A model generated the notes under the pieces. That model searched no databases. It was not told the origin of the DNA and saw nothing but the letters and a program-made list of their open reading frames with translations. Positions 4,407 through 60,163 of a DNA stretch of 61,407 nucleotides are shown piece by piece. This DNA comes from Pyrinomonadaceae bacterium (GTDB lineage Bacteria > Acidobacteriota > Blastocatellia > Pyrinomonadales > Pyrinomonadaceae): the NCBI GenBank assembly GCA_036399155.1, contig DASWNR010000065.1, positions 1 through 61,407 on the forward strand, given 5' to 3'. The position numbers and the translations under genes are program-made. The stretch's first letter is position 1. Every line of letters starts with the position of its first letter.

Positions 4407-4528
4407 GTAGACGGTGGACGGTAGAAGGTAGACGGTAGGTTAAAACGACTTCGGCGGGCGTCCGGGTTTTCGACCCGCGACGCCCGCCGAAGTTTTCTAC
4501 GGGCTACCGTCTACCGTCCACCGTCTAC
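4407..4528. repeat. nested palindromic intergenic element, GTAGWCR-heptamer arms (copy A)
   Basis: Arms are GTAGACGGTGGACGGTAGAAGGTAGACGGTAG ... CTACCGTCTACCGTCCACCGTCTAC. The inner hairpin is ACTTCGGCGGGCGTC-N16-GACGCCCGCCGAAGT. The core is shared with copy B. Confidence 0.9.
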
Positions 4529-4536
4529 TTCCCCGC

Positions 4537-4904
4537 TCACCTCTTCACGTTCTCGACCTGGACGGCGAGCACGTCGTTGAGGGCGGCGATGGCGACGCGC
4601 CTGGGCGCCTGCGGCAGCGTGATGGGCGCCGGCGAAAGCTCGACCGTCGAGTTGCCGTTGAGGTGCCGTCGAGGTCGAGGTCGGGCGTGACGTGGCGGTC
4701 GACGACGCGCTTGAAGTCCTCGGTCGAAACGTCCCTGTTGAAGTGCGTCTTGACGGAGTCCTGCATCATCGCCTGGAAGCGCTCGTCCGGGTTGCGGTTC
4801 GGGTTCTTGCGAAAAGGGCGCTGGCGGCCCCGAGGGAATTTTACGCGGCCGGGGGAGTCGAGGCGCGAAAGGTCATTCTTCTGACCGCGGTCGCGCGCCG
4901 TCAA
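4537..4904 (-). pseudogene. small conserved-looking gene disrupted by a frameshift (11-nt tandem near-duplication)
   Basis: The ORF-track frame (4545..4904) turns into Arg/Ser/Pro junk after ...VTPDLDLDG. A second frame reads LNGNSTVELSPAPITLPQAPRRVAIAALNDVLAVQVENVKR and stops at 4537. Total length is 368 nt, which is 119 codons plus 11 nt. Confidence 0.55.
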
Positions 4905-5096
4905 GCGGCCGCGCCGTCATGACACGGGACTTGACACGGGCGCGGGCGCGCCGATAAAACGGCTGCAAACGTTCGGGCGGAAAACGTAAAAATGGTCGGG
5001 CGGGCGCGGCTCGCCTACGCTATTCACGCGGCCGCGCGGAAGGGTTCCGGCGGGTGCCGGGCCGCCCCGCGCGGGACGGAGAGGAGTGGACGGAAG

Positions 5097-5789
5097 ATGG
5101 CCGGTCAGATGGTCGAGTTTCAGAGCAACGGCGGGACGGCCCGCGGCTACCTCTCGACGCCGGAGGGCGGGAGCGGCCCCGGCGTCGTCGTCATACAGGA
5201 GTGGTGGGGGCTCGTCCCGCACATCAAAGACGTGGCCGACCGCTTCGCGCGCGAGGGCTTCGTCGCGCTCGCGCCCGACCTCTACCACGGCGAGGTGGCG
5301 CGCTCGCCCGACGAGGCCGGGAAGATGATGATGGCGCTCAACATCGGGCAGACCGAGAAGGACTTGCGCGGCGCGGTCGAGTACCTCCTCGCCCACGAGG
5401 CGACGGCGGGAGAGGAGGTCGGCACGGTCGGCTTCTGCATGGGCGGCGTGCTCTCGCTCTACGCCGCGTCGAAGAACGAGCGCGTGGGCGCGTGCGTCAT
5501 CTTCTACGGCATCCACCCGAAGGTCGAGCCCGACTTCGGGAATCTGCGCGCGCCCGTGCTCGGGCTCTACGCCGAGAAGGACTCGTCCGTCCCGCCCGCC
5601 GCGGTGCGCGCGCTCGAAGAGAAATTCGACGAGCACGGCAAGTCAATCGAGACGCACGTCTACCCCGGCACAAACCACGCCTTCTTCAACGACACGCGCC
5701 CCGAAGTCTACGACCCCGAAGCGGCCGCCGACGCCTGGCGGCGCACAATCGAGTTCTTACGCCGACACCTCTCGGGGAGTAGACGGTAG
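5097..5789 (+). CDS. dienelactone hydrolase family protein
   Basis: MAGQMVEFQSNGG..GYLSTP...GVVVIQEWWGL, a nucleophile-elbow-like GFCMGG, and a C-terminal YPGTNHAFFND are typical of the DLH family. ATG 5097 is preceded by GGAGAGGAG. The stop TAG lies inside repeat copy B. Confidence 0.85.
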   Translation: MAGQMVEFQSNGGTARGYLSTPEGGSGPGVVVIQEWWGLVPHIKDVADRFAREGFVALAPDLYHGEVARSPDEAGKMMMALNIGQTEKDLRGAVEYLLAHEATAGEEVGTVGFCMGGVLSLYAASKNERVGACVIFYGIHPKVEPDFGNLRAPVLGLYAEKDSSVPPAAVRALEEKFDEHGKSIETHVYPGTNHAFFNDTRPEVYDPEAAADAWRRTIEFLRRHLSGSRR

Positions 5790-5894
5790 ACGGTAGCCAA
5801 TAGTCAGTAGAAAACTTCGGCGGGCGTCGCGGGTCAGGAACCCGTGACGCCCGCCGAAATCGTTTTACCCTGCTGACTACTGTCTACCGTCTAC
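5779..5894. repeat. nested palindromic intergenic element, GTAGWCR-heptamer arms (copy B)
   Basis: GTAGACGGTAGACGGTAGccaaTAGTCAGTAG ... CTGACTACTGTCTACCGTCTAC. The inner hairpin ACTTCGGCGGGCGTC...GACGCCCGCCGAA is the same as in copy A. Confidence 0.9.
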
Positions 5895-5895
5895 T

Positions 5896-6264
5896 TTGCA
5901 TGGTTGCGTCGCGCGTGAGGATGGCTTAAAACTGACGTTCGTGCCTGACGCGAAACTCCTTTTGATTTGCGCCGCCGCGCTCGCCGCGCTCGTCGCGGTG
6001 CTGACGATGTGGCGCGGGCGGCGCGGGGACGGGCCGATGCTCACGCAGACGCGGACGCTGCCGGAGATGAAAGGCTCGCTCGACGCCGGGCCGCAGGGGC
6101 GCTCAATCAACGTCTCGCTCGGCCGGGAGATTCTGCAACTGCTCGAAGCGGGTCGGCGGGTCGAGGCCGTCCGGCTCGTGCGCGAGCATACGGGCTGGGG
6201 GCTGAGCGAGGCGGCCGAGGCGGTCGCGAAGCTGGAGAAGTTGAAGAAGCGTTTGGAGTCGTAA
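5896..6264 (+). CDS. small membrane-anchored protein with ribosomal L7/L12 C-terminal-like domain
   Basis: One hydrophobic helix ([19 protein letters not shown]) is followed by [37 protein letters not shown], which resembles the L7/L12 CTD fold motif. The start is uncertain: TTG 5896 or in-frame GTG 5941. Confidence 0.55.
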
Positions 6265-6268
6265 AGCG

Positions 6269-7144: not shown

Positions 7145-8290
7145 ATGGCTCCCACTAAAAGTAGATCGAAGACCGCCGCGAAGAAGGCGAAGGCCGCCGT
7201 CAAGACGTTGAAGGCCGCGGCGTCGGGCAAGAAGTCGGGCGCGGCCGTCCGTCAGCCGTCGGGTTCGGGTAAGGCGAAGCCGGCGGCCGCCTCGAAGGCG
7301 AAAGCCGCGAAGACTTCAAAGGCGAAGCCCGCGCCGAAGCCGAAAACGAAGGCCGCCGTAAAGACGAAGGCGGCGGGGCCGGCCAAGGCGGGAACGGCGA
7401 AGACATCGGAGGCCCCGAAGGACGTGCTGGACTTCGGCGAGTTCCCCGCCGGCTCGGTCACGCGGCACGAGGTGACGCTGTGCCTCTCGTGCATCTTCAA
7501 GCTCTTCACACAGCAGCTCGGCCTCGCGCCGCGCACCGCCTACAACGAGATACGCCGCTACGCGCCCACCGTCGAGGAGCTGACGGCGCGCGAGCCGCAA
7601 CGCCCCTTCTTCAAGCCCTCGGCCGAGAAGAACCCGCGCTGCCCCTTCTGCGACGCGGCGAAGCGCTGGCACGCCGCGCTCCGCGTCCACCGCTTCGAGG
7701 GCGGCAGGGCTTCGGACGCCGCCCGCAAAACGCTGCTCAAGCGTCTGCCGGCGAAGGACGAGCAGTTCCAGGTTCACGAGGAGAAGCGGACGGCGCGGCA
7801 GGTCTTCTTCGAGTGGCTTGAGCGTCTGGGGCAGGAGCTTGACTTCGAGACGGACGCGGCGTGGATGCCCGCGGCCGCGCGCGCGTACCTGCAAAGGCGC
7901 GAGCCGAAGGCGGACTGGGCGGCGGCGTTCGGCGGCGTCCGGCAGGTGCGGCGCTCGCAGCGGCTCGAAGAGGGGTGGGAGCGCGACGGCGCGCGGCTCT
8001 TCCTCGCGCCCGCGCTCTACAACGACGTGCTGCTCGTCCAGTACCTCGTCAGCCGCTCGCACCGCCACGGCGGGCGCACCTTCGAGGGGCGGCTCACCCT
8101 GCGCGAGCTGGCGCGGGGCATGCGACGCGGCGGCCACCTCGACGCGCACGGCATCGACTCGCGCGACGAGTTTGAAATCCTCGAACAGCTCGTCGAGCAC
8201 CTCACGGGCGGCGACGCGCCCGCAAAGCTCCACTTCATCGTAGACCGCCGCGACCTCCTCGACACCGCGAAGGAAGTCGCAAGTCGGTGA
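7145..8290 (+). CDS. hypothetical protein with histone H1-like Lys/Ala/Pro-rich N-terminal tail
   Basis: The first ~85 aa are AKKAKAAVKTLKAAASGKK...KAKPAPKPKTKAAVKTKAAGPAKAG. The remaining ~295 aa are an unrecognised globular region with two Cys pairs (CLSC, CPFC). The stop TGA lies inside repeat G. Confidence 0.7.
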   Translation: MAPTKSRSKTAAKKAKAAVKTLKAAASGKKSGAAVRQPSGSGKAKPAAASKAKAAKTSKAKPAPKPKTKAAVKTKAAGPAKAGTAKTSEAPKDVLDFGEFPAGSVTRHEVTLCLSCIFKLFTQQLGLAPRTAYNEIRRYAPTVEELTAREPQRPFFKPSAEKNPRCPFCDAAKRWHAALRVHRFEGGRASDAARKTLLKRLPAKDEQFQVHEEKRTARQVFFEWLERLGQELDFETDAAWMPAAARAYLQRREPKADWAAAFGGVRQVRRSQRLEEGWERDGARLFLAPALYNDVLLVQYLVSRSHRHGGRTFEGRLTLRELARGMRRGGHLDAHGIDSRDEFEILEQLVEHLTGGDAPAKLHFIVDRRDLLDTAKEVASR

Positions 8291-8355
8291 TGGGTGATGG
8301 GTGATAAGAGAAGACGAGGCCCGTCTTTTCTTTCTTATCACCCATCACCCATCAC
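8287..8355. repeat. palindromic intergenic element, GTGATGR-heptamer arms (copy G)
   Basis: GTGATGGGTGATGGGTGATAAGAgaaGACGaggccCGTCttttcTTTCTTATCACCCATCACCCATCAC. It lies between convergent stops at 8290 (+) and 8361 (-). Confidence 0.9.
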
Positions 8356-8360
8356 TCCCC

Positions 8361-13140: not shown

Positions 13141-13252
13141 GTCAGTAGAGAGTAGTCAGTAGAAAAACCTTCTCTGTCGAATTGTCAGCAGTTCATTCTC
13201 AACGCCCGCGACGCGGGGCGCTACTGTCTACCGACTACTGTCTGCTATCTAC
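13141..13252. repeat. nested palindromic intergenic element, GTAGWCR-heptamer arms (copy C)
   Basis: GTCAGTAGAGAGTAGTCAGTAG ... CTACTGTCTACCGACTACTGTCTGCTATCTAC. The core is homologous to copy D in inverted orientation. The hyuB stop codon (13249-13251) lies inside the right arm. Confidence 0.85.
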
Positions 13253-14835
13253 TCCTTCCCGTGTCCGCCGCCGCCGGGTGTCTCGATGCGGACGCGGTCG
13301 CCGGGGCGCAGGTCGCGCGAGCCTTTGGCGTCGAGTTTAGAAGCGCGGCCGTCGCGCACGACGCGGTCGCGGCCGGGCTTGCCTTTGCCCCCGCCCGCGA
13401 GTCCGTAGGGCGCGCGCGCGCGCCGGTCGGCGAGCAGCGACATGCGCGCAGGGACGAGCGTCTCTATCTCGCGCACGACGCCGTCGCCGCCGCGCCTTGC
13501 CCCCCGCCCGCCCGAGCCGCGCCGCAGGGAGTAGGCGCGCACGCGCAAGGGGTACGCGTACTCAAGCGCCTCGGCCGGCGTGTTCAGGCTGTTGGTCATG
13601 TGCGTGTGGACGCCGCTCACGCCGTCTAGGCCGGGGCGCGCGCCCATGCCGCCCGCGACCGTCTCGTAGTAGGCGAACTCGCGCCCCGTGCGCGGGTCCG
13701 TGCCGCCGATGGTCAGGTTGTTCATCGAGCCCTGGCTCGCCGCAGGGACGCGCCCGGGCAGGGCTTTCGAGAGGGCCTTGAAGAGCACGTCCACGATGCG
13801 CTGCGAGGTCTCGACGTTCCCGCCCGCGACGGGCGCGGGGTGCGCGGCGTTGACGATTGTGCCCGCCGGCGCGTTGACCTCGATGGGCTCCATCAGACCC
13901 GCCGACGCCGGCACCTCCTCCGCGCCGACCAGACAGCGGAAGACGTACGCGACGGCCGAGACCGTTATCGCCTCGACGGCGTTGACGGGCCCCGAGACCT
14001 GCGGCGCACTTCCGCTGAAGTCCACGCGCGCGCGCTCGCCGCGCACCTCGACGCTGACGCGCAGGGCGACTTCGCCGGCCGCGACGCCGTCCGAGTCGAG
14101 CGCGTCTTCGGCCTCGTAGACGCCGTCGGGTATGGCGCGCACCGTCGCGCGCATCATGCGCGCGGAGTAGTCGATGAGGTGGCGCGCGTACTCGGCCGCC
14201 TCGCGCGCGCCGGCGCGCGCGACTATCTCCGACAGCCGCGCCGCGCCGGTCTTGAGCGAGCCGACCTGCGCCTCGAAGTCCGCGCGGCGCTCGCGCTCGA
14301 CGCGCACGTTGGCCATCAGCAGGCGCATCACGTCCCCGCCCACGCGCCCGCCGACGACCAGCTTCACCGGCGGAATCCTCAACCCCTCGCCGTACACGTC
14401 AGTCGCCATCCCCATAGACCCCGGCGTCGCGCCGCCGATGTCCGCGTGGTGAGCGCGGTTCGCGACGTAGAAAGCAGCCCTCCGCCCCGACTCGTCGAGG
14501 AAGACGCCCGAGACGAGCGTCACGTCCGGCAGGTGCGTGCCGCCTGCGAAGGGGTCGTTGAGGACGACCACATCGCCGGGGCCGACGGTCGTCTCGCGGA
14601 GAGCGGCGGCGACGGCCATGGGCATGCTTCCCAGGTGGACGGGCATGTGGTCGCCCTGCGCGATGACAGAGCCCGCGGCGTCGAAGACCGCGCACGAGTA
14701 GTCGCGCCGCTCCTTGATGTTCGGCGAGTGCGCCGTGCGCCTGAGCGTCAGCCCCATCTCCTCGGCGACCGACGTGTAGAGCGCGCGGTAGATTTCCAGC
14801 GTGGTCGGGTCGAAGCCCGTGCCCCTCTTTTTCAT
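13249..14835 (-). CDS. hyuB: hydantoinase B/oxoprolinase family protein
   Basis: MKKRGTGFDPTTLEIYRALYTSVAEEMG...RSPNIKERRDYSCAVFD...GDHMPVHLGSMP is the classic HyuB N-terminus. The start ATG 14835 overlaps the hyuA stop (ATGA). The 123 upstream codons of the ORF track were rejected. Confidence 0.9.
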   Translation of the reverse strand: MKKRGTGFDPTTLEIYRALYTSVAEEMGLTLRRTAHSPNIKERRDYSCAVFDAAGSVIAQGDHMPVHLGSMPMAVAAALRETTVGPGDVVVLNDPFAGGTHLPDVTLVSGVFLDESGRRAAFYVANRAHHADIGGATPGSMGMATDVYGEGLRIPPVKLVVGGRVGGDVMRLLMANVRVERERRADFEAQVGSLKTGAARLSEIVARAGAREAAEYARHLIDYSARMMRATVRAIPDGVYEAEDALDSDGVAAGEVALRVSVEVRGERARVDFSGSAPQVSGPVNAVEAITVSAVAYVFRCLVGAEEVPASAGLMEPIEVNAPAGTIVNAAHPAPVAGGNVETSQRIVDVLFKALSKALPGRVPAASQGSMNNLTIGGTDPRTGREFAYYETVAGGMGARPGLDGVSGVHTHMTNSLNTPAEALEYAYPLRVRAYSLRRGSGGRGARRGGDGVVREIETLVPARMSLLADRRARAPYGLAGGGKGKPGRDRVVRDGRASKLDAKGSRDLRPGDRVRIETPGGGGHGKE

Positions 14836-19706: not shown

Positions 19707-19749
19707 CGAAAAATTTCCGTCGGAAAATTTCCGGCGGAAAAAAATTTCG
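19707..19749. promoter_or_regulatory. three 14-bp-spaced GGAAA(A)TTTCC dyads (candidate operator or UP-like A/T block)
   Basis: cGAAAAATTTCCgt cGGAAAATTTCCgg cGGAAAAAAATTTCgg start at 19708, 19722 and 19736. This is an isolated A/T island immediately upstream of the oxidoreductase-dipeptidase-DinB-hyuAB gene string. The third copy doubles as the U-tract of the tricorn-gene terminator. Confidence 0.4.
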
Positions 19750-29135: not shown

Positions 29136-29186
29136 GTGTCGGCTGTCGGCTTGTTAGCTGTTAGCTGTCGGCTGTCGGCTGTCGGC
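29136..29186. repeat. tandem heptamer array GCTGTCG/GCTGTTA without an inverted partner (solo arm)
   Basis: GTCGGCTGTCGGCTTGTTAGCTGTTAGCTGTCGGCTGTCGGCTGTCGGCGG is about seven units of the same heptamer that forms the arms of the 34628-34703 palindrome. No complementary arm lies within 100 nt. Confidence 0.85.
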
Positions 29187-31973: not shown

Positions 31974-31982
31974 AAGATTCAA

Positions 31983-32057
31983 GTGATGAGTGATGAGTGA
32001 TGGGTGATAAGAAAAACCGGGAGCCTCGCCGTAATCTCATCACTCACCACTCATCAC
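31983..32057. repeat. palindromic intergenic element, GTGATGR-heptamer arms (copy H)
   Basis: GTGATGAGTGATGAGTGATGGGTGATAAGA ... TCATCACTCACCACTCATCAC. The left arm shares GTGATGGGTGATAAGA with copy G. The M61 peptidase stop (32054-32056) is inside the right arm. Confidence 0.9.
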
Positions 32058-33931
32058 TTCGGGAACGGCGCGCCCAGCCACGCCTGGTAGGTGCGGCGCT
32101 GCTGTTCGGTGGGGGCTGGCAGCGGGACGATGCGGTAGGCGGCGGCCGCGCGCGCGCCGAGCTTGATGTCGAGCGTGCGCAGCTCGTCGCCGCGGAAGAC
32201 CGAGAGCCTGAGCTGGTCGCCGGGGCGCTTGTCTGCGAGACGCGCGTTGAGGAAGTCGAGCGTGGCGCGGTAGCCGTCGACCGCGACTATCTGGTCTGCG
32301 GCGTAGAGGCCCTGCTCGTAGGCCGGCGTCCCGGCCGGGACGTTCGTCACGCCGAGCCGCCCTTCCTTCTCTTCGAGCGCCGCTCCGAGGTAGGCGGCGG
32401 CCGCCGCCGGCCTCCCCGACCTGTCGCTCTCCGTGTCGAGCCTGAGCCCGGCCCACCCGAGCGCCGCGTCGTAGTCCAACTCCTCGCGCCCGCGGACGTA
32501 GCGGCGGAAGAACTCTTCGAGACTCCGGCCGGCCGCGCGCTCGGCCGCGCGCTGAAAGTCCTCGGGCGTGTAGTTGCGCCCCTTCTTCCCGAACTCCTCG
32601 TAGAGCGAGCGCATCACGTCGTCGAGCGAGCGGGCGCCGTTCGAGCGGCCCCGGATTTCGAGGTCGAGCAGGAGCCCGACGATGGCGCCCTTGTCGTAGT
32701 AGGAGACAGCCGAGTTGACCGTGTTCTCGTCGCGCCGGTAGTACTTGATCCACGCGTCGAAGCTCGCCTCCTCAAGGCTCTGCTCCAGCCGCCCCGGCGT
32801 GTTCTGCAAAGTCTGCACCTCGCGCGCCATCGTCTCAAGGTACTGCCGGTCGGTCATCAGCCCGGCGCGGCGCGTGAAGACGGTCTCGTAGTAGGCCGTC
32901 AGCCCCTCGGCGACCCAGAGCAGGCGCGTGTAGTTCTCGCGCGTGTAGTCGAAGGGGCCGAGCGCGTCGGGGCGGATGCGCTTGACGTTCCAGAGGTGGA
33001 AGAACTCGTGCGCGAAGAGCGTGTGAACGTAGTTCAAGTCCTGCGGCGTCGAGAAGCCGAAGCGCTTGACGATGAGCGCCACCGAGTTGAGGTGTTCGAG
33101 CGCGCCGCCGTTCTTCTCGGCGAGCATGAGGATGAAGGTGAAGTCGCGGTACGGCGTGTCGCCCATCACGGCGACCTCGGCCTCGACGATGCGCCGCACG
33201 TCGGCGCGCAGCCGCTCGGCGTCGTAGCCGCCCTCGCCGTCGACGACGACGCGGTGCGGGACGCCCGCGACCTCGAACGAGAGCGTCTTAAAGTTACCGG
33301 CGAGGAAGGGCGAGTCGTAGAGCACGTCGAAGTTATCGGCGCGGAAGGTGCCGGCCGCCCCCTGCGCCGCCGGCAGGCCCGTCGCGATCTTCCAGCCGCC
33401 GAACGGCTCGACCCGAAGCGTCGAGGGCGCGCCGAGGTGCCCGTCCGGGTACATCAGGAGGTTGGCGTTGTTCCAGAAGGCGTGGCGGTCGTTCAGTTCG
33501 CTCGTCCGCACGGTCAGCTCGTTGGCGTAGACGCTGTAGCGCGCGAGCACCTCGCGGGCGCCGCCCGCCTCGACGCGCCAGGTGTTCTTGCTGACCTTCG
33601 TCCAGGGGAGCGCGCGCCCCGAGCCGTCCGCGGCCGCGAAGTCCTGGACGTGTCGCGCGAACTCGCGCACGAGGTACGAGCCGGGCGTCCAGACCGGCAT
33701 GACGAGGTCGACCGTGCCGGGCGCGGCGCGGCGGTATTGCAGCAGCGCCGTGACCTCGAAGAGGTGCGTGTGCGGCCTCCGCATCGAGACGGTGTAGGCG
33801 ATCTCGGGCGCGTCGGGCGCGGCGGCGCGCGAGCGCGGGTCGGGGCTTTGCGCGCGCACGGCCGCGGCGGCGAACTGTAGCGTGGCGAGGCACGCCGCGA
33901 GGGCAAGCGTCTTCGCGCGAGTGTGTCGCAT
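32054..33931 (-). CDS. M61 glycyl aminopeptidase-family metallopeptidase with C-terminal PDZ domain
   Basis: HEFFHLWNVKRIRP (HExxH) with a downstream EG..Y motif context. PDZ-like LGVTNVPAGTPAYEQGLYAADQIVAVDG. Signal peptide MRHTRAKTLALAACLATLQFAAAAVRAQS from ATG 33931. Confidence 0.85.
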   Translation of the reverse strand: MRHTRAKTLALAACLATLQFAAAAVRAQSPDPRSRAAAPDAPEIAYTVSMRRPHTHLFEVTALLQYRRAAPGTVDLVMPVWTPGSYLVREFARHVQDFAAADGSGRALPWTKVSKNTWRVEAGGAREVLARYSVYANELTVRTSELNDRHAFWNNANLLMYPDGHLGAPSTLRVEPFGGWKIATGLPAAQGAAGTFRADNFDVLYDSPFLAGNFKTLSFEVAGVPHRVVVDGEGGYDAERLRADVRRIVEAEVAVMGDTPYRDFTFILMLAEKNGGALEHLNSVALIVKRFGFSTPQDLNYVHTLFAHEFFHLWNVKRIRPDALGPFDYTRENYTRLLWVAEGLTAYYETVFTRRAGLMTDRQYLETMAREVQTLQNTPGRLEQSLEEASFDAWIKYYRRDENTVNSAVSYYDKGAIVGLLLDLEIRGRSNGARSLDDVMRSLYEEFGKKGRNYTPEDFQRAAERAAGRSLEEFFRRYVRGREELDYDAALGWAGLRLDTESDRSGRPAAAAAYLGAALEEKEGRLGVTNVPAGTPAYEQGLYAADQIVAVDGYRATLDFLNARLADKRPGDQLRLSVFRGDELRTLDIKLGARAAAAYRIVPLPAPTEQQRRTYQAWLGAPFPK

Positions 33932-34626: not shown

Positions 34627-34627
34627 G

Positions 34628-34703
34628 ATAGCTGTCGGCTGTTAGCTTAAAGCAGATTGAGGGGGGCTTGGCTAAAAGCCGACGGCTAACAGCCGACAGC
34701 TAT
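34628..34703. repeat. palindromic intergenic element, GCTGTYR-heptamer arms (copy J)
   Basis: Perfect 19-bp arms ATAGCTGTCGGCTGTTAGC / GCTAACAGCCGACAGCTAT lie between convergent trxC and the TPR gene. The TPR gene stop (34700-34702) is inside the right arm. Confidence 0.9.
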
Positions 34704-37348
34704 TGAACGTTGACCGTGACCTGCTGTGTGCCGCAGGCCGATTTGAAGATGGCGACGAAGGCGCCGGTCTTCCTGCTGATCGAGGTAATGGTGAAGCGCG
34801 CGAGGCCGGGGTCGTCGGCCGGGCTGCGCGGCTCGGCGAGGATGACGATGTCGGCCCAGTTCGGGGTCGAGGAGTCGATGCGCGCGGGCGTGCTGCCCGT
34901 GTAGTTGTCGATGCTCAGGGCGACGGTGCCCGAGCCGCCGTTGCTCTTGACGTTGAGCGAAGGCTCGGCGGCGGTCAGCACGCACCTGCCGCCCGGCTCG
35001 GTCCTTTTCGGCGCGGGCGAGGGCTCGGGCGTCGGAGTCGAGGTCGCCGGCGTCGCCTCGGGCGTGGCCGACGGCGAAGGCTCGGGCGAAGGTGACGGCG
35101 TCTCCGGGGCCGGCGGCGACGCGGGCGGAGTCGAAGGGGTCGGCTCGGCCGTCGGCGTCGCTGAAGGGGTCGGCTCGGGCGTGGCCGAAGGAGTCTCTGC
35201 GGGCGTAGGCTCCGGGGCCGGCGTGGTCGTGCTCGACGCGGCCGGGTTTGTCGTCGTCGCCTCGGTCGTTGACGACTGCGCGGGGGTCGTCGCATCAGAC
35301 GCGGGGGGGCGCGGCGGCGTGCGCGTGTTGGCGGCGGCCGCGGGCGCCTGCAAGAGCTGTTCGAGCCCGCCCGTCGAGCCGTTGTTGAGTTTCTTGTAGA
35401 GCGCCTCGATGGTGGGCAGCATTTTCGGGTCGGGCTGCGCGCGGTAGCTCGTGACGTACGCGGCCAGCGCGTCGCGCCCGCTCCCGCTCGCTTCGAGCGC
35501 CGCGCCCAGCTCCCACTCGGCCGTGCGCCACCAGTGCGAGCCTTCGGGCAGCACGCTCACCGCGCGCCGCAGGCGCACCGCCGCCTCGGCCGTCTGCCCC
35601 TGCTTGTAGAGCGCCCAGCCGGCCATCGCCTCTATCCGCCCGCGCAAGACCCTTGAGAGCATGTCGCGCTGCACGCCGAGCATGTTGAGCGGCGCGTCCT
35701 TCTCGACGACCTGACGGCGCAGCTCCCTCATCTCGTCCGTGTCGGCGAAGAGCGCGATGGGCGCGTGCGCCAGCCCGAGCGCCGGCTCGACGCCGCCGAT
35801 GGCCGCCTCGGCGCGTGCCAGAACCTCCGCGTGCGCGCCGCCGTGCGCCGCCAGCAGCCCGGCCGCGTAGAGGTTGCGGTAGGCGCGCATCTCGTCGTCG
35901 CCGGCGCCGAACTCGCGCGCGGCGTCGGCGGCGGCGCGCTCGCTCGGCGTCTCGCCGGCCGTCGCCTGCCGCAGCGCGAGCAGCGCCTTCAACGTCCTCG
36001 CCTCGGAGGCCGGGGACGCGCCCGCGAACTGCGCGAGGCTCGCGCGGCGCTCGGGCGCGAGCAGCTCGTTAAAGTCCGAGGCCGACGACTCGACGCGCCC
36101 GGCGAGCCGCGCGACTATCTTCCCGTCCCTGAGCGCGAACGAGCGCGAGAGCTGTTCGGCCGCCTCCGCGTAAAGACCCGAGGCGGCCAGCGCGGCGGCC
36201 AGCTCGTAGTCGAGCGTCGCGAAGTTGCCGAAGCGCCGCGCGTGCCTCATCGCCCGCTCGGCTTCGAGCGGGCGCTTGAGCACGAGCAGGGCGCGCCCCT
36301 GCGCGACGCGCGCCCACGCCCAGCCGAAGCGCGCCTCGAAGGCGACGGCCTTCTCGGCCAGCTCAAGAGCGCGCGCGCCCTCGCCGCGCGCCGCGTACCA
36401 GTAGGACGCGCCGACCAGCAGCGGCAGGTCGCGCACGTCACCCCCTTGCGCCGACTGCAACTCTCGCTCGGCATCCTCGCGCCGCCCCGACTCGAAGAGC
36501 GCGAGGACGAGCCCGGCGCGCGCGTTACGGTCGCCCGCGTCCGCCGCGAGCTGCTCCCTGTAGAGCGCCGCCGCCTCGTCGGGCTTGCCCGTCGCGCGCT
36601 TGAGTTCGGCCAGCGCGCGGCGCGCGGGCGCGTTCTTCGGGTCCAGCTCGACGGAGCGCGCCATCTCGGCCTCCGCCTCGTCGAGCCGGAGCGAGAGGCG
36701 GTGCGCCGTCCCGAGCGCCTGGTGCGCGGCGGCCGAGTCGGGCTGCGCCGCGACGGCCGCGCGCGCGAGCCGCGCCGCCTCCTCTATCTGCTCGACGCCG
36801 AGGTAGAACGAGGCGACCGCGAGCAGGCGCGCGGCGCTGCCTTCGGCGCGCGCCTCGACCGCGCGCGCGAGTTCCATCCCGGCCTCGCGCTCGCCGAGCA
36901 CGTAGAGGTTGCCGGGCAGTTGCGAGACGACCTCGGCGAAGAGCCTGTCGGACATCCCCTGCGGGGCCTCGGCGACGGCCGCGCGGAAGAGTTCGAGGGC
37001 GGCGGCGCGGTCGCCCGCGCGCAGACGCTCGTCGCCGAGCGCGGCGCGCGCGCTCGTCAGAAGCTCCTTCGCGCGCAGCGTCTGCGGCGTGTCCGGGTTC
37101 GCCTTGACGAAAGCCTTCAGGCGCTCGACGCGCGCGGCCGCTTCGAGCCTGACGACCTCGTCAAGCTCGGCCTTGAGCGCCTCCTCGTCGGCCGGCTTCG
37201 CGGGCGTCGTCCTGGGGGCGGCCTTCGCCTTCCCCTTCTGCGCGGGCGTCTTCGCGGCGGAAGCGCCCTTCTGCCCGGCGACGATGACGGTCGCGGCGGT
37301 CGCCGACAGGAGAATCGCCAGGGTGAAGCTTGAGAGTGTCCGTTTCAT
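34700..37348 (-). CDS. exported TPR-repeat protein with Pro/Thr/Ser-rich linker and C-terminal beta domain
   Basis: Signal peptide MKRTLSSFTLAILLSATAATVIVA, about 600 aa of TPR-like Ala/Leu/Arg helices, and a TPAPEPTPAETPSATPEPTPS... linker. ATG 37348 is preferred over GTG 37357. Confidence 0.8.
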   Translation of the reverse strand: MKRTLSSFTLAILLSATAATVIVAGQKGASAAKTPAQKGKAKAAPRTTPAKPADEEALKAELDEVVRLEAAARVERLKAFVKANPDTPQTLRAKELLTSARAALGDERLRAGDRAAALELFRAAVAEAPQGMSDRLFAEVVSQLPGNLYVLGEREAGMELARAVEARAEGSAARLLAVASFYLGVEQIEEAARLARAAVAAQPDSAAAHQALGTAHRLSLRLDEAEAEMARSVELDPKNAPARRALAELKRATGKPDEAAALYREQLAADAGDRNARAGLVLALFESGRREDAERELQSAQGGDVRDLPLLVGASYWYAARGEGARALELAEKAVAFEARFGWAWARVAQGRALLVLKRPLEAERAMRHARRFGNFATLDYELAAALAASGLYAEAAEQLSRSFALRDGKIVARLAGRVESSASDFNELLAPERRASLAQFAGASPASEARTLKALLALRQATAGETPSERAAADAAREFGAGDDEMRAYRNLYAAGLLAAHGGAHAEVLARAEAAIGGVEPALGLAHAPIALFADTDEMRELRRQVVEKDAPLNMLGVQRDMLSRVLRGRIEAMAGWALYKQGQTAEAAVRLRRAVSVLPEGSHWWRTAEWELGAALEASGSGRDALAAYVTSYRAQPDPKMLPTIEALYKKLNNGSTGGLEQLLQAPAAAANTRTPPRPPASDATTPAQSSTTEATTTNPAASSTTTPAPEPTPAETPSATPEPTPSATPTAEPTPSTPPASPPAPETPSPSPEPSPSATPEATPATSTPTPEPSPAPKRTEPGGRCVLTAAEPSLNVKSNGGSGTVALSIDNYTGSTPARIDSSTPNWADIVILAEPRSPADDPGLARFTITSISRKTGAFVAIFKSACGTQQVTVNVQ

Positions 37349-39790: not shown

Positions 39791-39800
39791 AAGACAACAA

Positions 39801-39905
39801 GTAGACAGTAGTCAGTAGCGCTCCGCGTCGAGGGCGTTGTCGCCGACTCACTGATGATTTGCTAAAGAAGGTTTTTCTACCGTCTACTGTCTACTGGCTA
39901 CTGAC
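39801..39905. repeat. nested palindromic intergenic element, GTAGWCR-heptamer arms (copy D)
   Basis: GTAGACAGTAGTCAGTAG ... CTACCGTCTACTGTCTACTGGCTACTGAC. The core CGCTCCGCGTCGAGGGCGTTG...AGAAGGTTTTT matches the reverse complement of the copy C core. Confidence 0.9.
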
Positions 39906-40137
39906 TTCCGTCTCCTTTCTTCCTCACGATTTGCGGCGCGGCCTGCACGTTTTGGGACGAGGCCGCGCTTCGTCGCGCGCCGCGTCAGTCTGACGCGGCG
40001 CGTCGTTTTCAGGCACTCTCCCCGGCGTCCTCAGAAATTCTCTTCGCGGCACGGCGGTTGCCAAAACGCGCGTCGGGATGGTTGCCGCAGGCCCCAGCGT
40101 TTCCCCGGTCGGAAGCGGCAGATATTTTGAAGGAGAG

Positions 40138-40770: not shown

Positions 40771-40774
40771 GGAA

Positions 40775-40885
40775 GTAGTCAGAGGAAGTAGTCAGTAGTC
40801 GGTAGATTAAAAAATCAGGCGGCGCGTCTCGGTCATCAGCCGAGCGCGCCGCCTGTCTTTCTACCGGCTACTGTCTACCGTCTAC
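40775..40885. repeat. nested palindromic intergenic element, GTAGWCR-heptamer arms (copy E)
   Basis: GTAGTCAGAGGAAGTAGTCAGTAGTCGGTAG ... CTACCGGCTACTGTCTACCGTCTAC. The core hairpin AGGCGGCGCG...CGCGCCGCCTGTCTTT is shared with copy F. Confidence 0.9.
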
Positions 40886-40906
40886 TTCCTCCTGTATCCT
40901 GTCACC

Positions 40907-47582: not shown

Positions 47583-49016
47583 ATGTCCGAGATCACAAAA
47601 GTCTTTCTCAGCTCGACCGCCAGAGACCTGTCGGATTACAGGGAGGCGGTCTACCGCGCCGTTCAGCAGATGGACGGATACAAGTGCGTCCGCATGGAGG
47701 ACTTCCTCTCGCGCGCCGCCTCGCCCATCGACCAGTGCCGCAGGGCGGTCGGCGAGTGCGACCTCTTCGTCGGCATCGTCGGCCCGCTGCACGGCAGCAG
47801 CCCGCCGGGCAGCGCCTCGTCCTTCACCGAGCTGGAGTACCACGCGGCGCACGACTACAACAAGCCGCGCCTGATGTTCCTCACCCCGCCGAAGTTCCAC
47901 GTCGAGGCCGACATGATAGAGGCGGACGACAAGCGCGAGCGGCAGGCGAAGTTCCGCCGCCTCGTGTTTGACACCAACGCCGCCGGGAGCCCCTTCGCCA
48001 CGCCGGAGGAGCTGGCGCGGCTCGTCGTCACGTCGGTCAGGAACTGGGAGAGCGCGGCGGCGACCGAGCGGAAGCGGACGCCGCCCAACCCGAGCGCCAA
48101 CGTCCCGCGCACGTGCGACCGCGAACACCAAGAGGCCGCCTTCGCCAGATACCTGCGCCTCGCCGGCGACTACCGCCCCGGCCTACCGCTCGTCTGCGTC
48201 GTGCGCGGCGAGGAGGGGCAGAACCACTGGAGCTTCGTCCGGCGGCTCTGCGAGACGCGGATTCAGACCTACGCGACTGAGCGGTCGGGCGAGAAGGGCG
48301 CGAAGGTCAAGCGGATCGACCTCGGCTGGCAATACTCGGACGACCTACAGTCGCGGCAGGACGCGCTGACCTCCACGCTCTTCGAGGCGCTCGACCCCGA
48401 CTACGTCGTCAAGCGCTCGGACTACTCGGCGGCGGCGCTACGCGGGCTGCTCGGGGGTTCGCTCTGCTCCGTCGTCGTCTTCCAGCATGAGGTGCACGCG
48501 CAGCTCTGGGACAGGACTTCCGAGTCGCTGCTGCGCTGGTACCTCGGATTCCTCGACGGGTTGAAGGCCGAGCCGCCGGTGCCGCAGTGCGTCGTCTTCA
48601 TCAACTTCGTCTACCCGGACGCGCGACGCGACGGGCTGTGGGCCTTCTGGCGCAGACTCCGGCGGGCCAGCCCCTTCGGGCTCAGCCGGCGCGTCGAGCG
48701 CTCGCTGCGCGGAATCGCCGCCGCGCCCGAGCGGGCGGTCGAGCCCAAGCGCGCGAAGGAGCCGGCGCGTGCGCTGGCGGCGGCGCCCGCGCACGCTGCC
48801 TGCGCGGTGCTCGACGAGCTGACCTGCGTCGAGAAGAAGCACGTGACGAAGTGGCTGCGCGACAACCACGTCAGCGACGACGAGGCCGAGATAGAGCGGG
48901 CGGCCGTCGTCATCCTGACGGACAAGCAGGGGCGGCAGTACAAGTGCCGCAACATGCGCGAGGTCGAGTCGTCGCTGAGGAACATCCACACACGGATCGT
49001 GAGCGAGGTGGCATGA
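47583..49016 (+). CDS. DUF4062 (TIR-/nucleoside-deoxyribosyltransferase-like) domain protein with degenerate STAND-like C-terminal region
   Basis: The N-terminus KVFLSSTARDLSDYREAVYRAV...CDLFVGIVGPLHGS...SFTELEYHAAHDYNKPRLMFL matches the DUF4062 pattern. From about residue 160, CDREHQEAAFARYL...PLVCVVRGEEGQNHWSFVRRL occupies the place of a P-loop but has no GxxxxGK[ST]. Confidence 0.7.
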   Translation: MSEITKVFLSSTARDLSDYREAVYRAVQQMDGYKCVRMEDFLSRAASPIDQCRRAVGECDLFVGIVGPLHGSSPPGSASSFTELEYHAAHDYNKPRLMFLTPPKFHVEADMIEADDKRERQAKFRRLVFDTNAAGSPFATPEELARLVVTSVRNWESAAATERKRTPPNPSANVPRTCDREHQEAAFARYLRLAGDYRPGLPLVCVVRGEEGQNHWSFVRRLCETRIQTYATERSGEKGAKVKRIDLGWQYSDDLQSRQDALTSTLFEALDPDYVVKRSDYSAAALRGLLGGSLCSVVVFQHEVHAQLWDRTSESLLRWYLGFLDGLKAEPPVPQCVVFINFVYPDARRDGLWAFWRRLRRASPFGLSRRVERSLRGIAAAPERAVEPKRAKEPARALAAAPAHAACAVLDELTCVEKKHVTKWLRDNHVSDDEAEIERAAVVILTDKQGRQYKCRNMREVESSLRNIHTRIVSEVA

Positions 49017-50022
49017 CGCAAGAGACAGACTTTCTCTACTATGCGGGCGACGGGACGAGGGCGACGGACGGCGCGCGGCGGCTGCCCGACTACGAGCGGC
49101 TCGTCCCGCCCGACGACCCCGGCGGGTACCGCGCCGAGCTGGGGCTGGTCAACGCCGTCAACGCCGCGCTGATGCTCGGCCAGCCGCTGCTCGTGACGGG
49201 CGAGCCCGGCACGGGCAAGACCCAGCTGGCGCGCAGCGTCGCACACGAGCTGGGACTGCCCGAGCCGCTCACATTCAACACGAAGACCACCTCGACCGCC
49301 AGAGACCTCTTCTACCGCTACGACTCGCTCGCGCACTTCCACGACGCGCAGTTCCGCAAGGGCGGCGACGGCGGGCGTGAAGCGCTCGACGTGGAGAAAT
49401 ACATCACCTACGAGGCGCTCGGCCGCGCCATCCTCCTGGCGATGTCGCCGAAGGAGGCCGACCCGTTCCTGCCGCCGGAGCAGAGGGGCATGGGGCCCGT
49501 GCGCTCGGTCGTGCTCATCGACGAGATAGACAAGGCCCCGCGCGACCTGCCCAACGACGTGCTCAACGAGATCGTGAGCATGTCCTTCACCGTCCGGGAG
49601 ACCGGGCGCACCTTCTCTGCGCCGGGGCGCTACAGGCCCATCGTCATCCTGACCAGCAACGCCGAGAAGAACCTCCCCGAGCCGCTGCTACGCCGCTGCG
49701 TCTTCTACTACATCAAATTCCCCGACGACGACTCCGCGCGGCTCGCCGAGATCGTCCGCAGCCGTCTGGGCGAAGGGGACGGCGGGCTGAGCGGCGATAT
49801 GCTGAGCCACGCGCTGACACACTTCCTCGAAATCAGGACCAACAAGCAGCTGAGGAAGCCGCCCGCGACCGCGGAACTGCTGGCGTGGCTGCGCGTCCTC
49901 GGCAAGAGGGGCATCGACGCGGGCAACCCCTCGCATGCCGCGGCACTGGCCTCGACCTACCCCGTGCTACTCAAGTACAAAGATGACCTCGACGCGCAGG
50001 CGGCGCGGCGACAAGCTCCGGC

Positions 50023-50026
<4 letters not shown>
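49013..50026 (+). CDS. MoxR-like AAA+ ATPase (AAA_5/AAA_3 type)
   Basis: Walker A LLVTGEPGTGKTQLAR, Walker B SVVLIDEIDKAPRDLPNDVLNEI, sensor region IVILTSNAEKNLPEPLLRRC. The start ATG overlaps the upstream stop (ATGA). The 142 upstream codons of the ORF track were rejected. Confidence 0.85.
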
Positions 50027-53487
<3,461 letters not shown>

Positions 53488-58637: not shown

Positions 58638-58680
58638 GAGAGGGCCGCTCCCGACGTGGGGCGGCCCTCTCGCTTTTAAA
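58638..58680 (+). terminator. intrinsic terminator
   Basis: GAGAGGGCCGC-tcccgacgtgg-GCGGCCCTCTC followed by GCTTTTAAAAA. Confidence 0.75.
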
Positions 58681-58748
58681 AATCCCCTCGGGAGACTTTT
58701 GAAAATCCTGACGAAAGCCGCGCCTGACACAGTTCCGACACATACTTG

Positions 58749-58776
58749 TTGACATCCGCCAGAATCACGGCATAAT
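58749..58776 (+). promoter_or_regulatory. strong sigma70-type promoter upstream of the S1C protease gene
   Basis: TTGACA-N16-CATAAT. This would give a leader of about 120 nt before ATG 58902. Confidence 0.6.
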
Positions 58777-58847
58777 GGCTGGACGCCGCGCGAGCCCCAA
58801 GGCGCGGCCGGTGAGTTCGGGTATTCGCCCGCCGAACCCTCCCCGAA

Positions 58848-58883
58848 AGAGCCGTTAACCCCGAGGCTCTAAACTCTTTTTTT
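58848..58883 (+). terminator. terminator-like hairpin plus T7 tract inside the 5' leader (possible attenuator)
   Basis: AGAGCC-gttaaccccga-GGCTCT then aaacTCTTTTTTT, 18 nt before the start codon. Two further hairpins lie upstream in the leader (GCCGCGC..GCGCGGC and GTTCGG..CCGAAC). Confidence 0.4.
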
Positions 58884-58901
58884 GAGAAGAAAGCCCCCGA
58901 G

Positions 58902-60062
58902 ATGTTTAAACGCAAGCTTCCCCCGTGGCTGGCGCTCCTGGCCCTTTTCTTCCTTCTGGCCGCGCCCGGAGCGGCGCGCGCGCAGGGCGAGTCGCTCCCC
59001 GAACTCATCCGCCGCGTCAAGCCCTCGGTCGTCTCCGTCATCACCTACAACGCGAAGGGCGAGGTCGCGCTCACGGGCAGCGGCTTCTTCGTCCGCCCCG
59101 GCGAGGTTCTGACGAACCTGCACGTCGTCGAGGGCGCGCACCGCGCCGAGGTGCGCACGTTCGAGGGCAAGGGCAAGACCTACCGCGTGGCGGGGCTCAC
59201 GTCGCTCGACGAGGACGGCGACCTCGCGGTCTTGAGCGTCGAGATGCCCGCGGAGCGCGCCCGCGTGGTCGAGACGGCGGAGGCCGCGCCCGAGGAGGGC
59301 GAGCGCATCTTCGTCATCGGCAACCCCCTGCGGCTCGAAGGCTCGGTGGCCGACGGCATCGTCTCGGCGGTGCGCGAGGTGCCGTCCTTGGGGCGCATCG
59401 TGCAGATCACGGCGCCCATCTCGCACGGCAACTCGGGCAGCCCCGTCTTCAACATGAAGGGTCAGGTGTTGGGCGTCGTCACCATCCGCGTGATGAACGG
59501 GCAGAACATCAACCTCGCGCTCGGCTCGCCGCGCTTCTCGGCGCTGCGGCCGGCCGGACGGCTCGTCGGCTTCGACGAGCTTTCGGCGAAGTCGAAGGAC
59601 GAGCAGAGGCCCGACTCCATCTCCGACTGGTGGTACCGCAACGGGCTCAACTCGCTCTGGCTCGGCAACTACGACAGCGCGCTCGGCTACTTCGAGACGG
59701 CGGTGAACAAGAACCCGCGGCGCGCCGACGCGTGGATTCAGGTCGGCTTCTGCAAGGTCAAGCAGGGCAAGAACCAGGACGCCATCCGCGCCTTCGAGCA
59801 GGCGCTTCGGCTTAAGCCCAGCTCCTACGAGGCGCTCAACAAGCTCGGCGACGCCTACTACTACGCCGGCAACTACTACAAGGCGCTCGACGCCTACAAC
59901 CGCGCCGTCTCGTCGCGCCCGGACCTCGCCGAAGGTCACTACAACCTCGGCGCCGTCCACCTCGAACTCGGCGACCGCGCCGCCGCCCTCGCACAGGCCC
60001 ACGCCCTCAAGCCGCTCGACCCCGCCCTCCACCAGAAGCTACTGCGCGAGATAGGGCGGTGA
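58902..60062 (+). CDS. trypsin-like serine protease (S1C/DegP-type catalytic domain) fused to TPR repeats
   Basis: Signal peptide, TNLHVV (His), DGDLAVL (Asp), GNSGSPVFN (Ser) catalytic triad contexts, and C-terminal TPR motifs (WIQVGFCKVKQGKNQDAIRAFEQALRLKP, GDAYYYAGNYYKALDAYNRAV). Confidence 0.85.
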   Translation: MFKRKLPPWLALLALFFLLAAPGAARAQGESLPELIRRVKPSVVSVITYNAKGEVALTGSGFFVRPGEVLTNLHVVEGAHRAEVRTFEGKGKTYRVAGLTSLDEDGDLAVLSVEMPAERARVVETAEAAPEEGERIFVIGNPLRLEGSVADGIVSAVREVPSLGRIVQITAPISHGNSGSPVFNMKGQVLGVVTIRVMNGQNINLALGSPRFSALRPAGRLVGFDELSAKSKDEQRPDSISDWWYRNGLNSLWLGNYDSALGYFETAVNKNPRRADAWIQVGFCKVKQGKNQDAIRAFEQALRLKPSSYEALNKLGDAYYYAGNYYKALDAYNRAVSSRPDLAEGHYNLGAVHLELGDRAAALAQAHALKPLDPALHQKLLREIGR

Positions 60063-60066
60063 GTAA

Positions 60067-60163
60067 GTAGACAGTAGTCGGTAGTCAGTAGAACAAAACA
60101 GAGGCGGCGCGCTCGGCTTATAACCCGAACGCGCCGCCTGTCTTTCTACTGACTACTGTCTAC
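60067..60163. repeat. nested palindromic intergenic element, GTAGWCR-heptamer arms (copy F)
   Basis: GTAGACAGTAGTCGGTAGTCAGTAG ... CTACTGACTACTGTCTAC. The core AGGCGGCGCG...CGCGCCGCCTGTCTTT is shared with copy E. It lies between convergent stops at 60062 (+) and 60168 (-). Confidence 0.9.

Follow-up and report, generated by a model that had tools for sequence, protein, structure and literature searches.

The window analysed here, a stretch of 61,407 nucleotides (nt) from a Pyrinomonadaceae bacterium (assembly GCA_036399155.1, contig DASWNR010000065.1), carries ten copies of an element built from tandem heptamers, nine of them palindromes and one a solo array. These copies are probably dispersed palindromes akin to repetitive extragenic palindromes (REPs) and to REPINs (REP doublets forming hairpins), with simple sequence repeats (SSRs) as arms, which would act as a combined stop and hairpin module at gene ends. 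Their closest published relatives are the GTAG-tagged REPs (Di Nocera et al. 2013, PMC3733652) and the convergent heptamer pairs of Xanthomonas (Rehm et al. 2015, PMC4692102). Each of the ingredients has been published; their combination, the rule of inward-reading stops and the dynamics at orthologous sites are undescribed as far as the literature searched shows.

Comparison with related genomes showed that the elements were added at gene 3' ends as discrete units and were then inherited, that they lose or flip their core, and that their arm units turn over fast, with both arms tracking each other. Judging by the codons they contain, the arms would halt ribosomes that come in from the adjacent gene, whichever of the three frames these read, and often serve as that gene's stop codon.

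Heptamer arms, cores and gene ends

An earlier note on this DNA had listed the ten copies, and all of them were read at their positions (Table 1). The window was scanned for period-7 arrays with Tandem Repeats Finder, which confirmed them in each of the two arms of all palindromic copies as well as at the solo array. The motif GTAGWCRGTAG occurred 22 times against 0.04 expected from 100 dinucleotide-preserving shuffles, and all 22 matches were confined to the six GTAG-type copies, on the plus strand in left arms and on the minus strand in right arms. For an 18-mer with at most one mismatch, 19 matches were found and none expected. In the six GTAG-type copies, each unit opens with GTAG, or with GTGG in the case of two units in copy A; a terminal GTAG/GTRG tag is missing from both GTGATGR copies and from the GCTGTYR copy. 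The density in the window is about one palindromic repeat per 6 kb, directly 3' of genes.

Table 1. Heptamer-armed elements of the window (z, folding score relative to shuffled sequences)
Element	Coordinates	Arms	Core	Fold	Context
Copy A	4404..4531	left 4407-4438 (GTAGACG/GTGGACG/GTAGAAG units), right 4496-4528	4447-4494; A-tract, GC hairpin and T-tract, ACTTCGGCGGGCGTC...GACGCCCGCCGAAGT	-99.7 kcal/mol; z -12.8	downstream of small ORF 4545-4904(-); 150 nt upstream of bactofilin gene 3499-4254(-)
Copy B	5778..5895	left 5779-5810, right 5867-5894	hairpin 5816-5858 (core of copy A)	z -12.8	dienelactone hydrolase gene 4992-5789 stops at TAG of second heptamer
GTGATGR copy 1 (G1)	8286..8356	8287-8309 and 8333-8355, 100% complementary	8310-8332	z -10.1	between convergent genes; gene 7145-8290 stops at TGA of first heptamer
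Copy C	13141..13252	13141-13162 and 13221-13252	13163-13220 (58 nt); on minus strand GTAG + CGCCCCGCGTCGCGGGCG stem-loop ... AGAAGGTTTTT	z -2.5	hydantoinase B gene 13249-14835(-) stops at TAG in outermost unit; next gene begins 16 nt past other arm
Solo array	29136..29186 (+)	GCTGTCG/GCTGTTA units, 7 copies; no inverted partner		z -0.6	between enoyl-CoA hydratase and amino-acid permease genes, both minus strand
GTGATGR copy 2 (G2)	31981..32059	31983-32012 and 32035-32057		z -7.3	M61 peptidase gene 32054-33943(-) stops at TGA of outermost unit
GCTGTYR copy (H)	34627..34704	34628-34648 and 34683-34703		z -7.9	between convergent thioredoxin and TPR genes; TPR gene stops at TAG inside right arm
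Copy D	39800..39906	left 39801-39818, right 39877-39905	39819-39876 (58 nt); GTAG + CGCTCCGCGTCGAGGGCG stem-loop ... AAGAAGGTTTTT	z -2.2	10 nt past stop of gene 39269-39790(+)
Copy E	40774..40886	left 40775-40805 (with 13-nt duplication), right 40861-40885	hairpin 40816-40853; GGCGGCGCG...CGCGCCGCC, then TGTCTTT	z -10.0	between 207-aa gene and rsmI
Copy F	60066..60171	left 60067-60091, right 60146-60163	hairpin 60102-60139 (core of copy E)	z -9.4	convergent genes; degenerate extra unit, whose CTA (60168-60170) is the stop codon of an M16 peptidase gene

The copies were folded as single strands and compared with 200 shuffles each. Copies A, B, E and F, both GTGATGR copies and the GCTGTYR copy gave z values of -7.3 to -12.8, equalled by none of the shuffles. 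Seven of the nine palindromes thus fold far better than shuffled sequence. The central GC-rich hairpin that had been ascribed to every full copy is lacking in copies C and D, whose arms do pair; their z values reach only -2.5 and -2.2 because the core (57-60 nt) contains no large GC hairpin, just a small stem-loop of 7-8 base pairs (bp) beside one arm. No fold was obtained for the solo array. Across the arms, 1007 of 1128 positions (89%) form Watson-Crick pairs; mismatches of the G-T and A-C kinds are balanced (38 versus 34) and not linked to the transcribed strand, and so give no sign that pairing is kept in RNA rather than in DNA.

The grouping of cores into the pairs A/B, E/F and C/D was borne out. 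Cores of the A/B, E/F and GTGATGR types consist of an A-run, a GC-rich stem-loop and a T-run of four to five T, which looks like the layout of a two-way intrinsic terminator; the core of the GCTGTYR copy belongs to the same A-tract, GC-hairpin and T-tract module. In A, B, E and F, an A-rich linker of 8-13 nt separates the tag from this longer hairpin, unlike the REP stem-loop, which lies 0-2 nt from its tag. Cores of the C/D type are of near-constant length; they begin with GTAG followed directly by a GC-rich stem of 7-8 bp with a loop of 2-5 nt, and end with GAAGGTTTTT. This REP-type stem-loop beside the tag is present in C, in D and in their relatives, for example as GTAG+CGCTCCGCG-TCGA-GGGCG. 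A candidate outward promoter in the C/D core (a TTGAC-like motif with TACTGT in the arm) was rejected, as the core occurs in either orientation relative to the downstream gene and a promoter scan found no site.

Elements outside the window were collected by scanning one genome per species with the pattern GTAGWCRGTAGWCRGTAG; this returned at least 119 stretches, and counts given below for listed loci are those among the matches listed. Among these loci, the C/D core lies in both orientations relative to the flanking genes (about six one way and three the other, by eye), which would be accounted for if cores flip when the inverted arms recombine. When eleven E/F elements were aligned, their outer stem proved nearly invariant, a pattern that common descent of the copies fits better than independent invention. 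As this stem hardly varies, covariation carries little signal in the E/F core, with double changes in five of 31 pairs.

Since the window has a G+C content of 69%, genes were called from codon-position GC and cross-checked with Pfam. On both grounds, the open reading frame (ORF) 3343-4410(+) was recognised as an antisense artefact of the bactofilin gene 3499-4254(-); gene 39269-39790(+), also called in syntenic genomes, is real. The 44 junctions of the window comprise 6 convergent, 6 divergent and 32 tandem ones, which hold 3, 0 and 7 elements, respectively. As the earlier note had it, each of the nine palindromes adjoins the 3' end of a gene, and divergent genes have none between them. Its count of four copies between convergent genes had to be lowered to three (8287, 34628 and 60067), because the left neighbour of copy A is the minus-strand bactofilin gene. 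Where spacers are at least 60 nt long, elements are found at 10 of the 20 junctions with an incoming gene and at none of the 6 divergent ones (one-sided hypergeometric p of about 0.035, calculated by hand). In long tandem spacers, the element hugs the upstream stop codon and stays far from the next start (14 versus 150 nt for copy A, 10 versus 232 nt for copy D). The neighbour's stop codon lies inside the arm in copies B and C, in both GTGATGR copies and on the right side of the GCTGTYR copy and of copy F; on the remaining sides, it is 4-14 nt away.

This contact can be related to the heptamers themselves. GTAGWCR contains TAG and GTGATGR contains TGA and, because seven is not a multiple of three, three units place a stop in every frame. 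These stops, which are TAG, TGA or TAA depending on the unit, are found on the inward-reading strand only, the complementary strand being free of them. Twelve inverted pairs of other heptamers in the listed loci show the same bias, with stops inward-only in 8, outward-only in none, in both directions in 2, in neither in 1 and mixed in 1. The ends of incoming ORFs cluster at positions -3, -10 and -17 from the array start, in paired as well as solo arrays of the listed loci, indicating that the first, second or third unit provides the stop. By a codon-phase test, 57 of 75 elements of these loci have an arm into which coding sequence extends. Solo arrays located within genes are antisense in 11 cases and sense in none. 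The association with 3' ends also extends to other genomes: crude ORF calls gave 16 convergent, 32 tandem and 5 divergent junctions in the listed genomes and, as two of these five are miscalls that could be checked in the window, the ratio is 16 convergent to at most 3 divergent; the codon-phase test gave 8 to 2 in high-GC listed loci.

It is worth noting that the small ORF next to copy A (4525-4904, minus strand) changes its codon-position GC frame at about 4640-4660, at an 11-nt tandem repeat (4644-4675), and that its C-terminal part would stop at a TAG belonging to copy A's right arm. Either the gene is frameshifted or the assembly contains an indel here.

Orthologous sites, other genomes and viral contigs

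Six syntenic loci (L122-L127) from five related genomes were compared with the window junction by junction. Filled and empty versions were found, depending on the genome, for sites B, C, D and G2, for the solo array and for the junction of the GFO_IDH gene with the peptidase M19 gene. For site B, a vestige of 39 nt is all that is present, in L122; site C has no element in L122, L123 and L124; site G2 (31983) has none in L126 (24-nt spacer) and L127 (38-nt spacer); and the junction of the solo array is 6 nt long in L124. Site D is full in the window and lacks an element in L125; L126 has arms around a loop of 13 nt, and L127 has the same core type inverted. In contrast, site E holds an element in all four genomes in which it could be read (window, L125, L126 and L127), with a conserved core and arms altered in the order and number of their units.

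In the window and in L122, the GFO_IDH gene overlaps the M19 gene. A complete C/D-type element of 154 nt lies between the two in L124, and L123 has a deletion derivative of 43 nt with the same core start. The upstream protein of L123 and L124 keeps its sequence up to ...RVAVG/RAVVG, where the TAG of the array ends it. The element was thus inserted exactly at the gene boundary, where no spacer existed before. No target-site duplication was found at the filled and empty versions of this site or of site D.

A different behavior was seen at two convergent junctions (ARPP-1 and a 381-aa gene; thioredoxin and TPR genes), where every genome has a heptamer palindrome and the heptamer differs. At G1 (8287), compared between the window, L122, L123 and L124, the heptamers are GTGATGG, GGAGGTC/AGGTTAG and GGGGCTA/AGGCTAG; at H (34628), AGCTGTC in the window is replaced by AGCCGTG/AACCGTG in L126 and L127. 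The heptamers at these sites differ by one to three changes and, in each genome, the right arm carries the unit variants of the left arm. Period 7, inverted symmetry and inward stops are thus kept while the sequence drifts, with the arms evolving in concert. These changes indicate that in-place repeat turnover also shapes the elements, and other heptamers make up the arms of roughly half the heptamer palindromes found in syntenic Pyrinomonadaceae loci. Separately, L124 contains at 16590-16728, between two minus-strand genes, a palindrome of 139 nt whose arms consist of GACAGGAT-like units that are not of period 7; other arm periods therefore exist in these genomes.

The architecture was found in at least 119 genome stretches from many phyla. 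Hosts among the matches listed are Pyrinomonadaceae, other Acidobacteriota, Gemmatimonadota, Chloroflexota, Planctomycetota, cyanobacteria (Microcoleus, Tychonema), Bacteroidota, Fibrobacter, some Proteobacteria and others. Considering arrays less than 160 nt apart in the listed loci and the window, 58 pairs place the GTAG-reading array left of its complement, and none is reversed. The pattern was also found in viral contigs of IMG/VR, where it occupies at least 120 stretches; among the matches listed, 29 pairs point inward and 2 outward, and one of the two outward pairs is merely two adjacent elements. One of these contigs (L172) has four GTAGWCR palindromes within 4 kb (1348-5243); its parent, IMGVR_UViG_3300010379_000008, recurs in several loci of L128-L247, and such palindromes are frequent in some viral contigs. 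Between the arms, listed loci show a 7-nt loop (Chloroflexota), terminator-like hairpins or inserts of about 100 nt.

Whole elements of the window, cores included, match elements of other Acidobacteriota at 75-85% over about 100 nt, with flanks that cannot be aligned. The E/F core was found in six further listed loci (L041, L049, L063, L070, L108 and L116), the C/D core in about nine, and the GTGATGR type in L026, L070 and L116 among the matches listed. No homologue of the genes flanking the window copies is encoded in the listed loci that share the E/F core, the C/D core or the GTGATGR type. The earlier suggestion of copying or mobility is accordingly upheld by the recurrence of the same cores at unrelated sites, within the window and in other genomes, and by the filled and empty orthologous junctions; it does not extend to G1 and H, where the heptamer was turned over in place in both arms together, nor to E, which was merely inherited in four genomes.

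Two independent metagenome contigs (L001 and L002) match the right end of the window at 99.96% identity, and copy F is identical in both. The best homologues of hydantoinase B and RsmI, at 90-95% identity, bear the name Pyrinomonadaceae bacterium, which places the organism among uncultured Pyrinomonadaceae. No variation in unit number was found at copy F between these near-identical sequences, their sole indel being an unrelated hexamer repeat. This repeat, an in-frame (ACGAAC)n at 52174-52223 inside the ORF of a 1154-aa protein, differs by one unit between the window and L001.

Relation to known repeats and weighing of explanations

REPs have been divided into GTAG- and CGTC-tagged superfamilies (Di Nocera et al. 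2013, PMC3733652), and the published pattern is a GTAG-type tag followed by a short GC-rich stem-loop (Quentin et al. 2018, PMC6006769), with a stem of 6-13 bp and a loop mostly of 2-5 nt located 0-2 nt from the tag by the criterion of Di Nocera et al. GTAG REPs form head-to-head dimers with the tags outside, lie downstream of ORFs, between unidirectional or convergent ones, and often supply a TAG stop codon through their tag (PMC3733652). The GTAG-type copies resemble them in this position and in their frequent use of the tag as a stop codon. They also resemble GTAG REPs and REPINs (PMC3733652; Bertels and Rainey 2011, PMC3116915) in having outer GTAG/GTGG tags that face outward on both sides: GTAG is outside in 58 of 58 genome pairs and 29 of 31 viral pairs among the matches listed. 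Like GTAG REPs, the window elements are palindromic, dispersed, common to several species and persistent over long vertical descent. The C/D cores, with GTAG directly followed by their stem-loop, are REP-like, and the complement of GTAGACG begins with CGTC, the tag of the other superfamily.

Other features set the window elements apart. Their tag is reiterated as 2-8 tandem heptamers which form paired arms, the centre of A/B and E/F is a single hairpin, accompanied by A- and T-tracts, in place of two inverted REP stem-loops, sister elements carry non-GTAG heptamers (GTGATGR, GCTGTYR, AACCGTG, GGGGCTA and others), and no RAYT (REP-associated tyrosine transposase) is linked to them, unlike REPs and REPINs. 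Acidobacteriota are absent from the GTAG-REP hosts listed in 2013, and only atypical HUH transposases with other flanking repeats have been reported in Acidobacteria (PMC3733652; Quentin et al. 2018, PMC6006769).

In Xanthomonas, arrays of the heptamer GGGAATC form 70-75 closely spaced convergent pairs on opposite strands per genome (Rehm et al. 2015, PMC4692102). These arrays, of 2-26 units and at a mean of 28 nt from the upstream ORF, resemble those of the window in being tandem heptamers, mostly intergenic, in some cases located over a stop codon, rare between divergent ORFs and found at different genes in related species. Unlike them, the GGGAATC unit contains no stop codon and is interpreted as forming G-quadruplexes, and neither common cores nor families across genomes nor dynamics at orthologous sites have been described for these pairs (PMC4692102).

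Heptanucleotides are reportedly the commonest long simple repeats of prokaryotes and have been ascribed to slippage (Mrazek 2007, as cited in PMC4679880). Such long SSRs, the cyanobacterial short tandemly repeated repetitive (STRR) sequences (Mazel 1990) and the TAACTGA repeats of Beggiatoaceae, cyanobacteria and Bacteroidetes (MacGregor 2015, PMC4679880) share with our arrays period 7, an intergenic location and a patchy distribution across phyla. TAACTGA repeats, moreover, also provide stops in three frames in one orientation, and overlap ORF ends by up to 18 nt (two full repeats and four bases). The window arrays themselves consist of head-to-tail 7-nt units in the two to three or more copies by which SSRs and STRRs are defined, and are mainly intergenic. 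Most other heptanucleotide SSRs and STRRs, however, are solo direct arrays with neither palindromic partner nor core, and TAACTGA arrays mostly lie just upstream of start codons (PMC4679880).

[quoted passage not shown] We know of no parent insertion sequence with matching ends. Elhai is said to have described, in 2008, small dispersed repeats in Nostoc. The A/B, E/F and GTGATGR cores resemble bidirectional intrinsic terminators in their A-run, GC stem-loop and T-run, and three copies occupy the entire spacer between convergent genes, as such terminators would; unlike terminators, they have short T-runs, a core common to unrelated sites and paired arms that are superfluous for termination. A search of the whole window against Rfam at gathering thresholds returned one tRNA only and no repeat, and in E-value mode, the region of copies D and E matched only long-hairpin microRNA (miRNA) models, at 25-39 bits against thresholds of 90-168. 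As words, the heptamers had no match in the literature searched. The statement that this is no named REP or MITE family therefore stands as regards Rfam and the heptamers; it does not hold for the GTAG-type copies, which fit the GTAG-tagged REP superfamily by tag, outward orientation, position and stop supply (PMC3733652), and convergent heptanucleotide pairs by stop codons had been reported in Xanthomonas (PMC4692102).

The REP-like reading, which has our qualified preference, can be framed as follows. A terminal tag, or another heptamer bearing a stop, would have been reiterated into tandem 7-nt units, giving an inward-reading (GTAGWCR)n array on the left, a core drawn from a few reusable modules and the reverse-complement array on the right. 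The hairpin core is predicted to end transcription, to shield the mRNA 3' end or to do both, in either direction, and the stops in three frames would render an insertion at or into the last codons harmless. Such harmlessness would explain why the elements hug stop codons and could settle between formerly overlapping genes. Spread may have involved a single-strand HUH (RAYT-like) enzyme reading GTAG, hairpin-templated slippage, or both. Several points weigh against this reading. In classical REPs, one short stem-loop carries an unpaired tag; the tags here are reiterated and base-paired, and an A-rich linker separates the single central hairpin of A/B and E/F from the tag. The T-tracts 3' of the cores are short, and a simple consensus terminator scan flagged the core of copy B only. 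Core E is 85-93% identical between four genomes and thus no better conserved than four-fold sites of rsmI (81-96%), sequences too divergent for this comparison to be informative on selection; no signal of selection was seen. As to the REP-type transposase that the earlier note had proposed to look for, tblastn with the Escherichia coli TnpA-REP protein (probe checked against PDB 4ER8) found no RAYT/IS200-like match in 2.09 Mb of locus DNA, a sample short of a whole genome for what is a single-copy gene, and the Pfam lists of the window and of syntenic loci of about 120 kb contained neither such a protein nor another transposase. The missing target-site duplications and the differing heptamers at G1 and H, which in-place turnover fits better than copy-and-paste, add to these points.

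The last observation is central to a purely in-place origin, in which heptanucleotide repeats would grow by slippage on either side of pre-existing terminator hairpins, template switching or selection for pairing would copy changes from arm to arm, and no transposition would occur. Related heptamers with shared unit variants at orthologous convergent junctions agree with it, as do the arms of E, which changed their unit order faster than the core, the array at 31983, which begins precisely where the native GTGA of the M61 stop codon lies, the symmetric arm mismatches, which point to DNA-level pairing, and the reported prevalence of slippage-born heptanucleotides. As a full account it is nevertheless unlikely: near-identical cores with the same arm type occur at unrelated sites, within one genome and between genomes, the GFO_IDH/M19 element with its full C/D core sits between genes that overlap in relatives, where no hairpin pre-existed, and the GTAGWCR unit is common to many phyla and viral contigs. 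We consider it quite improbable that the elements are primarily regulatory structures at the RNA level, with a super-hairpin of 70-120 nt serving as RNase III/E target, operon attenuator or small RNA. The predicted RNA folds are very stable, 7 of the 10 copies lie between same-strand genes, where read-through transcripts would hold both arms, and an effect of REP and MITE hairpins on mRNA stability, in either direction, is known (PMC3733652); but G-U-compatible mismatches are not in excess on the transcribed strand, the distal arm would never be transcribed if the core terminates, C/D cores occur in both orientations, and Rfam offered no family beyond chance miRNA-hairpin matches far below threshold.

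Sites acting at the DNA level, bound by a protein or extruded as cruciforms (gyrase, a nucleoid protein or a chromosome organiser, as proposed for bacterial interspersed mosaic elements) and with the heptamer as binding unit, are very improbable. The strict conservation of GTAGWCR across phyla does suggest recognition of sequence beyond pairing, and the pairing statistics fit complementarity of DNA; yet about half of these palindromes in the syntenic loci are built from other heptamers, the inward stop-codon rule and the tight contact with stop codons are left unexplained, and there is no candidate protein. Chance similarity or an assembly artefact is already refuted by the excess of GTAGWCRGTAG matches over expectation, by the two independent assemblies from other samples that agree across copy F at 99.96% identity, and by the same architecture in hundreds of independent public assemblies.

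A more far-reaching and rather doubtful proposal is that the elements are self-propagating gene-end cassettes which cross phyla and are partly phage-borne. Period 7 would persist because, being coprime with 3, it lets a single stop triplet per unit close all three frames on both strands, the arms would be kept alike by hairpin-templated conversion, and GTAG would be the handle of an HUH (RAYT-like) enzyme, whose repeated cleavage and rejoining would also create tandem units. Such a cassette would be a portable natural module in which a stop of translation in three frames is joined to a two-way terminator, and it could land harmlessly on the last codons of any gene.

If the preferred REP-like reading is right, about one gene in five in these soil Acidobacteriota would end in a portable module that gives the stop codon, backs up the other two frames and, with its hairpin, probably ends the transcript. 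Three separate literatures, on REP/REPIN elements, heptanucleotide simple repeats and terminators, would be joined, with a concrete reason for the favoured period of 7 and for the hugging of stop codons by repeats, and concerted evolution could be studied conveniently in the two inverted arms at orthologous sites. Synthetic biology could borrow the cassette design. On the practical side, gene calls that span these elements will have misplaced C-termini and include antisense ORFs, and the arms are likely hot-spots for assembly and genotyping.

Further features of the window

A group I intron of about 640 nt interrupts a tRNA(CAU) gene on the minus strand (23401-24114), which has an exact 5' half at 24080-24114 and a 3' half running from 23439 down to about 23401. 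The Rfam model Intron_gpI matched at 23519-23617 with 45.4 bits (E-value of 4e-10), just below its threshold of 50, and ARAGORN called no tRNA at this position. The split gene is also present in L122, with an ORF of 141 aa inside, and in L123; L124 has an uninterrupted tRNA.

Between an AAA gene and an acyl-CoA dehydrogenase gene, positions 47583-53487 hold an island of three genes coding for a DUF4062/iSTAND protein, an AAA ATPase and the 1154-aa protein mentioned above, which has no Pfam match. This island, which looks like a variable defence-type island, is found in the window and L001 and is missing from L125, L126 and L127.

Plain hairpins devoid of heptamers occur as well. A perfect one with arms of 24 nt (A-run, GC stem, T-run; 3426-3480) fills the spacer between the convergent genes 2171-3415 and 3499-4254, and further terminator-like hairpins are found in the spacers starting at 19671, 57436 and 58608. 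A 14-nt tandem repeat, AAAATTTCCGGCGG, is present in 2.3 copies at 19710-19741, between the GC hairpin 19748-19784, located 3' of a tricorn protease gene, and the start of the next downstream gene.

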